Virus record (IMG/VR): IMGVR_UViG_2734482571_000007
Origin: a virus
Lineage: Duplodnaviria; Heunggongvirae; Uroviricota; Caudoviricetes
Length of the DNA: 39,690 nt
Strand: one strand, 5' to 3'
Made by a program: the position numbers and the translations under genes. Of this stretch, positions 5,334 through 7,193 are shown piece by piece. Within the stretch, counting starts at the first letter, position 1. Every line of letters starts with the position of its first letter. The notes beneath the pieces were generated by a model. The model worked only from the letters and a program-made list of their open reading frames with translations. It was not told the origin of the DNA and ran no database searches.

Positions 5334-5359
5334 TTCCTGAAAACCTCGGTTTACGGGAA
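5334..5359. repeat. gix-like crossover site (TTCCTGAAAACC TC GGTTTACGGGAA), left boundary of invertible segment
   Basis: 26-bp site with two 12-bp half-sites around a central dinucleotide; closely resembles the Mu gix sequence as recalled; inverted partner at 6650-6675. Confidence 0.7.
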
Positions 5360-5707
5360 ACGGTAAACAGGGCGGCGAATGCTCTGCCATCGGACGGCAC
5401 CGCCGTTGCCGCGAATAGACTCGCCACCCCAAGAAATATTAATGGGGTTCCCTTTGACGGGACGCAGGACATAAACATCACTTCTGGTATAACACAGCAG
5501 GATGCGGATTCCCGATATATCCAGGATATCAGGCTGGGAGCAGAGAACAGGCAGGTAATGTACGGTGGGGCATATTACTCTGCGTACGGTAATGTTATGG
5601 CAGGCCTGCAGATTGACAGTAAAGTTGATGCTTCAAACGATTTTATAGCATTCAGACCCCTGCAAAAATTAGTCGGAGGTACATGGATTACGGTATCTCA
5701 GTTATAA
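5348..5707 (+). CDS. Alternative tail-fibre C-terminal segment (Sv'-like); no start codon, expressible only after inversion fuses it to the constant part of S
   Basis: Open frame from the gix core to a stop at 5705-5707 encoding [24 protein letters not shown]..., sharing its first about 25 aa with the minus-strand fibre at 6600-6680. Confidence 0.65.
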   Translation, partial: GLRETVNRAANALPSDGTAVAANRLATPRNINGVPFDGTQDINITSGITQQDADSRYIQDIRLGAENRQVMYGGAYYSAYGNVMAGLQIDSKVDASNDFIAFRPLQKLVGGTWITVSQL

Positions 5708-5758
5708 ATAGTCAGTAAATAATATATTTTAAAACAGATTTATTTCCAGGAGGATTTT

Positions 5759-6280
5759 ATGGAACTAAAAAATATAACCCGTTATTATCCTGAAAATATG
5801 CCATATGGTAATAATGTTCAGTATTTCCAGAGTGAAGATGGTAAGGATTTCTACGAATCCCTGCCATTATTCACCAAAAAATATAAACTTTGCATAACAC
5901 CTGACAGCGGCGTTATCTGCTCAATATCACAGGACGCCTCGGCGCTGTATCCTGCGGGGTTTTCTGTGGTTGAGGTCGATGAACTCCCTGAAGGCACGGA
6001 TATTTCAGGAAACTGGAAGTTTGATAATGGCATAATCTCCCGTATTCCGGTTAACTACGCAAGAAAACTGGAAGCAATGCGCCAGTCATATCTTAATCAG
6101 GCATATGAAAAAATTAATGACTGGAGAACGGAGCTACAACTGGGCACCATCAGCGATGAAGACAGAGCAGCACTTACCCAATGGATGGCATACATCAGTC
6201 AGGTGAAGAAAATGGAACTACCCGCCATTAAAACAGAAGCTGAATTTAACGCCATTAAATGGCCTGAGCAGCCACAGTAA
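5759..6280 (+). CDS. Tail fibre assembly protein (Mu U / P2 G / lambda Tfa family)
   Basis: 173 aa; AGGAGG ribosome-binding site; family-typical motifs; positioned after Sv' inside the invertible segment. Confidence 0.8.
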   Translation: MELKNITRYYPENMPYGNNVQYFQSEDGKDFYESLPLFTKKYKLCITPDSGVICSISQDASALYPAGFSVVEVDELPEGTDISGNWKFDNGIISRIPVNYARKLEAMRQSYLNQAYEKINDWRTELQLGTISDEDRAALTQWMAYISQVKKMELPAIKTEAEFNAIKWPEQPQ

Positions 6281-6283
6281 TAA

Positions 6284-6303
6284 AGAAGGCCGGAAGGCCT
6301 TCT
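6284..6303. terminator. Hairpin AGAAGGCC-GGAA-GGCCTTCT between convergent Tfa and tail-fibre genes
   Basis: Perfect 8-bp stem with a 4-nt loop, 3 nt after the Tfa stop and 9 nt after the fibre stop. Confidence 0.5.
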
Positions 6304-6311
6304 GAATATCA

Positions 6312-7193
6312 TTATATACTTGCAGCCGTCACCCATGCTCCATTTAACAGATACTGCAACGGCCGGTAATACACGCCGCCGACGTTATCTGCCGTATTCT
6401 TACCGACATCCTGTACTTTAATTCCGGTAAGAACATTGCCGCCCCCCAGATTCAGATCCCAGCTTTCCCATGTTCCGGGCATATGTGCGGTCACCGACCC
6501 CAGTCTTATGGCGGTTACTGTTCCTGATGAGATAGTGATATCCTGCGTCCCGTCAAAGGGAACACCATTAATTGTGTGGGCATTTGCCAGCCTGTTCGCG
6601 GCAACGGCGGTGCCGTCCGATGGCAGGGCATTCGCCGCCCTGTTTACCGTTTCCCGTAAACCGACGTTATCGATAAAAGCCCCTTTATCCGGAATGTCTG
6701 CGCCGTTCTGCTCCCTGCGCAGGTAACGGTTATCACCTTCGCTTTTGCTGTAAACATCCAGATTATTACGGGCGGTTCCCTTATTCTCCAGGTCGGCGAG
6801 ATTCTGATCCTTCGCCAGGGCATTAACGTCAGCGGGACCAAGACTGTTTTTTGTGGCAAGCGTCCCCAGACCAAGATAACCACGGGCCAGACGCTGGGCC
6901 TCCGCACCGGCATCAGCAATTTCTTTCAGGTTATTTTTCCGGGAAAAGGCATTCGCAGCGATAATGGCTTTAATGGACAGCGTAAGCTGGTTTAACTGCG
7001 CCTTATCCGGCTGAATACTGGCTTCAGCCAGAATATTCAGCAGTTCGGCCTGGAGAATATTCAGCCAGTCCTGACCAATCCAGCTGATACCTTTTTGTCC
7101 GTCACCTTCGGTAAACCAGGTGGTGGTATTACTCTGCGCCGGTGCCAGCGCAGGCATATTCGCCACGCCGGAATTATTATCAACATGAAACAT
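6312..7193 (-). CDS. Tail fibre protein S (constant part 6664..7193 plus currently fused variable part 6312..6663)
   Basis: Position after baseplate genes; C-terminal part lies inside the invertible segment; shares the crossover-region peptide with Sv'. Confidence 0.8.
6650..6675. repeat. gix-like crossover site (TTCCCGTAAACC GA CGTTATCGATAA), right boundary of invertible segment
   Basis: Inverted partner of 5334-5359; shares the GGTTTACGGGAA half-site in inverted orientation. Confidence 0.65.

Follow-up and report, generated by a model that had tools for sequence, protein, structure and literature searches.

A compact invertible tail fibre segment with a single tail fibre assembly gene in Mu-like prophages of Escherichia coli

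How does an invertible tail fibre switch with two alternative fibre tips manage with a single chaperone gene? The question is raised by IMGVR_UViG_2734482571_000007, a viral sequence of 39,690 nucleotides (nt), the whole of which was analysed and is referred to here as the window. Beside a gene for a Gin-like serine DNA invertase it carries a short segment, bounded by inverted recombination sites, that holds two C-terminal tips for the fibre protein S but only one gene for tail fibre assembly (Tfa). In the present orientation S ends in the tip termed A, and Tfa lies on the opposite strand. The reading preferred here, with a probability of about 0.55, is that one shared Tfa would serve both tips and would be expressed in either orientation. 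It draws on gene layout, on a survey of related loci and on a sub-lineage that has lost the invertase but not Tfa. The features of the segment are listed below (aa, amino acids).

4696-5268, - strand: gin-like serine DNA invertase, 190 aa (Pfam Resolvase 1.6e-51, HTH_7 4.9e-15), adjoining the segment
5334-5359: gixL, the invertase-proximal site, 26 bp, TTCCTGAAAACC TC GGTTTACGGGAA, central TC at 5346-5347
5348-5707, + strand: tip B (Sv'), start-less and Tfa-linked, in frame with S only after inversion, when S has 296 aa
5708-5758, + strand: spacer between the tip B stop and the Tfa start, 51 nt, 78% A+T, with a strong AGGAGG ribosome-binding site
5759-6280, + strand: Tfa, 173 aa (Pfam Caudo_TAP PF02413 4.8e-19, phrog_136 4.7e-56, Mu U in 5yvq_B 4.2e-16)
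6284-6303: GC-rich hairpin, AGAAGGCC-TTCC-GGCCTTCT, between convergent stops and terminator-like on the - strand
6312-6662, - strand: tip A (Sv), the Tfa-unlinked and currently expressed variable C-terminus, homologous to the tips of P1 S, SfMu S', P2-like H and the POP15, CR8 and phiTE short fibres
6312-7193, - strand: tail fibre S, 293 aa in the present orientation (with tip A)
6651-6676: gixR, the site inside the S gene, 26 bp, TTCCCGTAAACC GA CGTTATCGATAA, central GA at 6663-6664
6664-7193, - strand: constant N-terminal part of S, 177 residues, outside the invertible segment (phrog_1833 6.7e-141)

The invertible segment and its inversion in nature

The invertase is 75% identical to SfMu Gin over 181 aa, and both sites resemble their counterparts in that phage: gixL is identical to the invertase-proximal gix at 21 of 26 positions, and gixR to the site inside S at 23 of 26. 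On the + strand the central dinucleotides (TC and GA) match in inverted orientation, as inversion requires, and the segment measures 1,317 bp between the crossover centres. In the initial annotation the left site was placed correctly, while the right one was called at 6650-6675, one base too far left. The inverted repeat continues inward for ~150 nt past the gix sites, with a block of 86 nt at 93% identity (5339-5424 / 6586-6671) and a second of 50 nt at 84% (5438-5487 / 6523-6572), and is far above chance. It encodes a peptide stretch common to the two alternative fibre C-termini, and this is the source of the protein motif that had been noticed in both variable segments after the crossover.

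When the segment is flipped in silico at the central dinucleotides, S becomes an in-frame protein of 296 aa ending in 5348-5707, and S is annotated with this length in the naturally flipped genomes FORC_043 and NCCP 13983. A flip at the Gin sites fuses the 177-residue constant part of S in frame to either tip A (293 aa) or tip B (296 aa). The description of the locus as a compact tail fibre segment bounded by Gin/gix elements is thus borne out by the invertase domains, the inverted 26-bp sites and the in-frame exchange of tips.

Inversion of the segment occurs in nature. In FORC_029 and NCCP 13983 the same prophage disrupts the same fimbrial usher gene, and the two 42,701-bp loci differ at 819 positions, all of which fall between the gix sites; once the segment of one locus is flipped in silico at the central gix dinucleotides, the sequences agree over all 42,701 bp, with 0 mismatches. 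This pair, identical apart from the flip, is a clean natural demonstration of Gin-type inversion. Among near-identical prophages in complete E. coli genomes ~18 have the orientation of the window and 5-6 are flipped, and in the locus survey described below the counts are 31 and 8. The genomes of DLI.5a, TOE17 and AST46 each contain the prophage family twice, at separate loci and in opposite orientations of the segment. Seven contigs from IMG/VR (L034, L046-L051) stop inside or just after the constant part of S, at the gix site or inverted repeat, as is expected when an assembly meets both orientations in the sequenced culture. The activity of the switch was examined by asking whether only one orientation exists; both were found, with a pair of loci related by an exact flip. 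Phase variation has also been detected experimentally in a Mu prophage of enteropathogenic E. coli, which is not necessarily of this family (Goldberg et al. 2014, PMC4272514).

The single Tfa gene and the two tips

With PF02413 the Tfa protein scores 69.2 bits against a cut-off of 22.1, and its residues 18-153 align to Mu U in 5yvq_B. Its dN/dS (the ratio of non-synonymous to synonymous substitution rates) is 0.15-0.27 between relatives, and the alleles W and L006 are 72% identical in the N-terminal domain versus 47% in the C-terminal domain. Only after inversion does Tfa stand on the same strand downstream of the fibre, behind tip B and a gap of 51 nt; with tip A it is convergent. No second Tfa was found in six frames of the whole 39.7-kb window with a hidden Markov model of 14 diverse Tfa proteins and four further Tfa types, the only match being 5759-6280. 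The stops of tip A and Tfa are 31 nt apart, with the hairpin inside, which leaves no space there for another Tfa. The statement that there is only one such gene, on the strand opposite S with tip A, therefore stands.

Related loci were gathered via the constant part of S from GTDB species genomes, IMG/VR and diverged E. coli relatives. Exactly one Tfa lies between S and gin in all 39 of the 39 loci that have this constant part and a Tfa. Far from being the oddity of one prophage, this is the standard layout across a whole family of Mu-like E. coli prophages, the O157 Sp18 type included. Two classical fibre/Tfa pairs, with junctions of 1-2 nt or overlapping, are present in SfMu and in the more distant relatives L056 and L057 (S 65-68% identical), which indicates that the single-Tfa layout is derived. 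The unlinked tip is of type T1 (as in the window) or T0 (as in the O157 Sp18 type), while the Tfa-linked tip is T2 (window), T3 or T4. Tips and Tfa alleles are found in several combinations across the loci, so that these modules recombine. In single-Tfa loci the spacer between tip and Tfa is A+T-rich, 51-121 nt long and equipped with a Shine-Dalgarno sequence for Tfa, compared with at most 17 nt between the genes of 11 conventional fibre/Tfa pairs. A relative in Citrobacter braakii ATCC 51113 (L010, 6800-9300; also L061) has three gix-like sites (~6819, 8856 and 9223), one expressed and two silent tips, and again one Tfa in the segment, together with a hairpin of 17-bp stem between the convergent S and Tfa genes, at the same position as in the window.

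A sub-lineage without gin bears on whether Tfa can act in the present orientation. Ten of the fetched loci share one deletion junction (window 4763-5737) that removes gin, gixL and the linked tip, and the same junction is found in 7 complete genomes, some of which are also among the ten loci. In these phages the switch is locked: S ends in the unlinked tip (T1 or T0), and Tfa converges on it from the opposite strand. Tfa is intact in 10/10 loci, as 6 alleles that are all of 173 aa; their dN/dS is 0.11-0.16, a value that was dropped as a measure of selection after the deletion because recombination confounds it. The one exception to an intact gin-less Tfa is the copy in JE86-ST05, an assembly that is frameshifted in many other genes too, and its disruption is probably an artefact of assembly quality; the gin-less prophage of M3 has no annotated pseudogene. 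Gin-less copies are located at four chromosomal sites in four unrelated strains (flgL, xdhA, next to citF, and bcsA). Thus a locked phage able to make only the unlinked-tip fibre has spread and has kept its Tfa, as is predicted if Tfa is shared but not if the unlinked tip needs no chaperone. The lineage argues that Tfa may work from the strand opposite its fibre. That Tfa is expressed only after inversion, as the initial annotation had it, was an assumption, and one that sits poorly with the intact Tfa genes of these locked phages.

Gin recombines the inverted gix sites, one in S and one beside gin. Under the shared-Tfa reading, the single Tfa would fold whichever tip is attached to S. Tfa would be transcribed and translated separately, by means of its own ribosome-binding site and the spacer of 51-121 nt, rather than being tightly coupled to the fibre as in two-Tfa systems, and would be made whichever way the segment lies. 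The fuller version, in which Tfa is a stand-alone, orientation-independent and promiscuous chaperone with its own promoter that folds two tips (three in the Citrobacter relative), seems to us an even bet. The 51-nt spacer is the candidate site of such a promoter. It contains a good -10-like TATATT with a poor -35, a combination that would suit an activator-dependent late promoter, although this is a reading of the sequence and not a result. By analogy, it is possible for one Tfa to serve different tips: pro147 and a P2-like phage have P2-type Tfa proteins that are 88% identical, next to fibre tips that are 48% identical and of the B-like and A-like class, respectively. Outside the family, the nearest Tfa N-terminal domains are those of the POP15 and CR8 Tfa (~40% identity, E ~1e-22), which are partners of A-like tips. 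The N-terminal domain is described as the fibre-binding domain of Tfa in PMC9608196, citing North 2019.

Several observations weigh against this reading. No match to the sigma-70 consensus was found upstream of Tfa on the + strand in the window, and in relatives the promoter-like matches upstream of Tfa are at or below the level of shuffled controls. The pattern of the Mu C-box (TTAT-N6-ATAA) is absent near the segment, and the one match in the window (2205-2218) is unrelated to it. All unlinked tips of the E. coli family fall into one sequence class (...VQDxGxxxADNxGGVYYRP...), which may have some special property. Finally, in a neighbour-joining tree the gin-less Tfa alleles are not monophyletic but interleaved with gin+ alleles, which means that much of the divergence of gin-less Tfa was imported by recombination and does not reflect long vertical descent. 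A scan of 4500-7300 against Rfam gave no match.

The alternative that survives best, although we consider it unlikely, is that tip A folds without Tfa, so that Tfa would serve tip B only and one of the two host-range states would be chaperone-free. Such a division of labour agrees with the physical linkage of Tfa to tip B-type tips only (T2, T3, T4), all unlinked tips of the E. coli family being in class T0/T1, and with the failure to find a Tfa promoter in the present orientation. A Xenorhabdus tailocin study of 2026 also reports fibre variants that worked without an associated chaperone, one of its two readings being that the chaperone is not essential (PMC13280938). The relatives of tip A point in the other direction. 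The two tips are members of one widespread family, which also comprises those of P2 H, P1 S, and S and S' of Mu/SfMu; tip B has homologues in P2-like H tips and in the Mu S tip of 5yvq_A (6e-6). Tips that are 44-52% identical to tip A occur in six unrelated phages (POP15, CR8, Escherichia phage 19-1-2, Actinobacillus phage pPE4, one P1-like and one P2-like), and in each the next gene begins 0-17 nt after the tip and is a Tfa or, in 19-1-2, a Tfa-sized gene that is unannotated in that record. In pro147 a tip B-like tip is likewise followed by Tfa within 0-17 nt. The C. braakii relative reverses the linkage seen in E. coli, its A-like tip being Tfa-linked and its unlinked tip belonging to a different class, and the gin-less lineage, which has the unlinked tip only, keeps Tfa intact in every locus. 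The evidence thus speaks against tip A being a chaperone-free kind of tip, and the suggestion that it might be chaperone-independent is not supported. The related proposal, that one host-range state lacks a cognate chaperone, was right in that there is one Tfa and active inversion; a functional lack is probably wrong, considering that the tip family is Tfa-linked elsewhere and that the locked lineage keeps its Tfa.

It is improbable, more so than a tip that folds unaided, that tip A obtains Tfa in trans, whether from sister copies flipped by Gin during lytic replication or from the Tfa genes of co-resident prophages. The nearly identical Tfa pair that is found with different tips in nature would fit such a supply, as would the genomes that hold two prophage copies in opposite orientations, and E. 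coli genomes commonly carry several lambdoid and P2-like Tfa genes. The gin-less lineage, however, is unable to flip and yet is found at four chromosomal sites with its own Tfa retained, and reliance on whatever prophages a new host carries would be an unreliable strategy. Mu Tfa is also said to stay stoichiometrically bound to the fibre tip, in which case trace amounts would be insufficient.

There is little chance that the present orientation is a non-productive "off" state (fibre-less or poorly infectious), or that the segment is the decaying remnant of a two-pair G segment. The missing chaperone gene, at face value, would fit either idea, and many prophages do decay. Against both, the variable part of tip A differs from its relatives (dS ~0.43-0.45) by 18 synonymous and 6 non-synonymous changes, giving a dN/dS of 0.09, which indicates that it is under strong purifying selection and is not decaying sequence. 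In addition, ~80% of loci have this orientation (31 versus 8 and ~18 versus 5-6, as given above), the lineage locked in it is represented by an intact prophage at four insertion sites, and the layout persists across diverged tip and Tfa alleles. The least credible alternative, that the switch has passed from phage host range into the service of the host (for example through a fibre fragment able to block other phages), has a precedent in prophage fibre inversion as anti-phage defence (PinQ and the e14 P segment, PMC12529663) but has to contend with a segment that lies within an apparently complete Mu-like prophage, with S at the end of the baseplate operon, in a mobile family whose insertion sites differ.

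Comparison with known fibre switches

To judge from the sequence, the segment works like the Mu G/Gin switch, and the defining features tested are present except for the content of two pairs. In common with Mu G/Gin, SfMu and P1 C/Cin, there is a serine invertase beside the segment, the 26-bp sites have a TC/GA core, one site lies inside S, and the tips are swapped in frame. The homology with Mu extends to the proteins themselves, as the N-terminus of S is homologous to Mu S (residues 1-198 align to Mu S in 5yvq_A by phmmer, with 9e-46 for the whole protein), and the tips and Tfa to Mu S/S' and Mu U. The neighbourhood is also that of Mu and SfMu: upstream lie baseplate genes like gp47/gp48, and downstream com/mom. 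Where Mu, P1 and SfMu have two convergent tip/Tfa pairs, the window segment has one Tfa. It is short, 1.3 kb compared with ~3 kb between the SfMu sites, and S itself has 293 aa here versus 488 aa in SfMu. The gap between tip and Tfa is 51 nt with its own ribosome-binding site, whereas in SfMu it is 1-2 nt. A further difference from SfMu is that SASA/DUF6645, DUF1378 and DUF826 genes and a small hypothetical open reading frame (ORF) are inserted between gin and com/mom.

The closest layout is that of Sp18 of E. coli O157:H7 Sakai, since the O157-type loci (L006, L009, L035 and relatives) are organized in the same way; their alleles differ, with tips T0 and T3 and Tfa F1 in place of the T1, T2 and F0 of the window. 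The Sp18-type prophage family was already known (Asadulghani et al.), and a literature search turned up no paper in which the single Tfa is noted or accounted for. More alternative tips than Tfa genes are also a feature of multi-site and tailocin systems (Erwinia phage ENT90, the C. braakii prophage, xenorhabdicin and carotovoricin Er). These systems differ from the window in their backbone (P2-like phage or tailocin), in the number of sites and in their Tfa types. In the P2-like ENT90 (L083/L084, 27000-29564 and 1-2300) the invertase region apparently contains ~4 tip pieces and 2 Tfa genes, and the currently expressed fibre converges on a Tfa of the other strand; unlinked tips may thus be common among multi-site systems. 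The invertible fragment of carotovoricin Er is reportedly of 790 bp. For xenorhabdicin, the Xenorhabdus study brings up a "common chaperone" that would serve the fibre variants (PMC13280938).

In the engineering of phage and tailocin host range, fibre/chaperone pairs are usually treated as inseparable. If the shared-Tfa reading is true, one Tfa could be put to use with several receptor-binding tips, making fibre swapping simpler, and Tfa would be far less specific than one would conclude from the "cognate pair" layout of Mu, P1 and P2. The locus would then be a minimal host-range switch and, with three coding pieces in 1.3 kb, a compact model for studying which features of a fibre tip are recognised by a Tfa. 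A switch with a single Tfa leaves the general view of invertible host-range segments as it was.

Prophage context and minor observations

Almost the whole of the window is a Mu-like transposable E. coli prophage, 99-100% identical to prophages in complete genomes (e.g. JE86-ST05 and strain 600029), and it belongs to the family of O157 Sp18-type Mu-like prophages, across which the segment layout is standard in E. coli. It has the characteristics of a Mu-like transposable phage: a MuA-type transposase, the B ATPase, Gam, a Mor-family activator, Mu-type structural genes, com/mom and variable insertion sites. The insertion site varies by strain, being beside rhsC/ybfB in JE86-ST05 and in the fimbrial usher gene in FORC_029, which implies random insertion, typical of a transposing phage like Mu. 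Matches in other genomes start at window 195-202, which places the prophage end there and makes the first ~200 bases host flank.

Gene order was taken from the annotation of the JE86-ST05 prophage, which is 99.4% identical to the window. From the right prophage end (~window 200) it runs mom/com, DUF826, DUF1378, DUF6645/SASA, invertase and invertible segment, and beyond the segment there follow genes for tail fibre, baseplate, tail, head and lysis, then the Mor-family activator, Gam, the B ATPase and the Mu-type transposase. The late operon is read on the - strand and has the invertible segment at its fibre end; S adjoins the gp47/gp48-like baseplate genes (7193-8826) at the end of the baseplate operon. 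At window ~21302-21381 a "tRNA-OTHER" is annotated by RefSeq in identical prophages; an ARAGORN search of the whole window gave neither a tRNA nor a tmRNA. Two further features are the following.

2556-4610, - strand: SASA gene, 684 aa, with a sialate O-acetylesterase (SASA) domain and a C-terminal DUF6645, phrog_143
2229-2423 and 1939-2193, - strand: DUF1378 and DUF826 genes, downstream of the SASA gene in the cassette

A 13-nt motif, TAAAACAGA(G/T)TTA, is present on the + strand in 3 copies within 1.1 kb, where ~0.8 matches are expected per whole window: at 4634-4646 (upstream of the SASA gene), 5312-5324 (upstream of gin) and 5730-5742 (in the spacer between tip B and Tfa). It was not used as evidence, because the copies do not face the adjacent genes in a consistent way and the same data had served to define the pattern. 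The best match of tip A in the Protein Data Bank is the phiTE short tail fibre (9cuy), which was set aside as a solved structure for the tip because only fibre residues 3-92 are modelled and the tip fold is not covered.

In FORC_043 the silent copy of tip A is frameshifted in a homopolymer at window 6442-6447 (C6 on the + strand, G6 in the tip A frame; about 2470 in locus L001). The locus there is shorter by one base, and translation goes out of frame after ...WDLNLG, while NCCP 13983, which is also flipped, keeps the run intact; the frameshift is either a sequencing error or the mark of a slippage-prone site.

The three genes for SASA/DUF6645, DUF1378 and DUF826 form a cassette (window 1939-4610, - strand) between gin and com/mom that has no counterpart at that place in SfMu. 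It resembles the NanS-p esterase cassettes of Stx and lambdoid prophages. In the C. braakii relative the position of the cassette is occupied by a second fibre gene, collagen-like and accompanied by a Tfa of its own.

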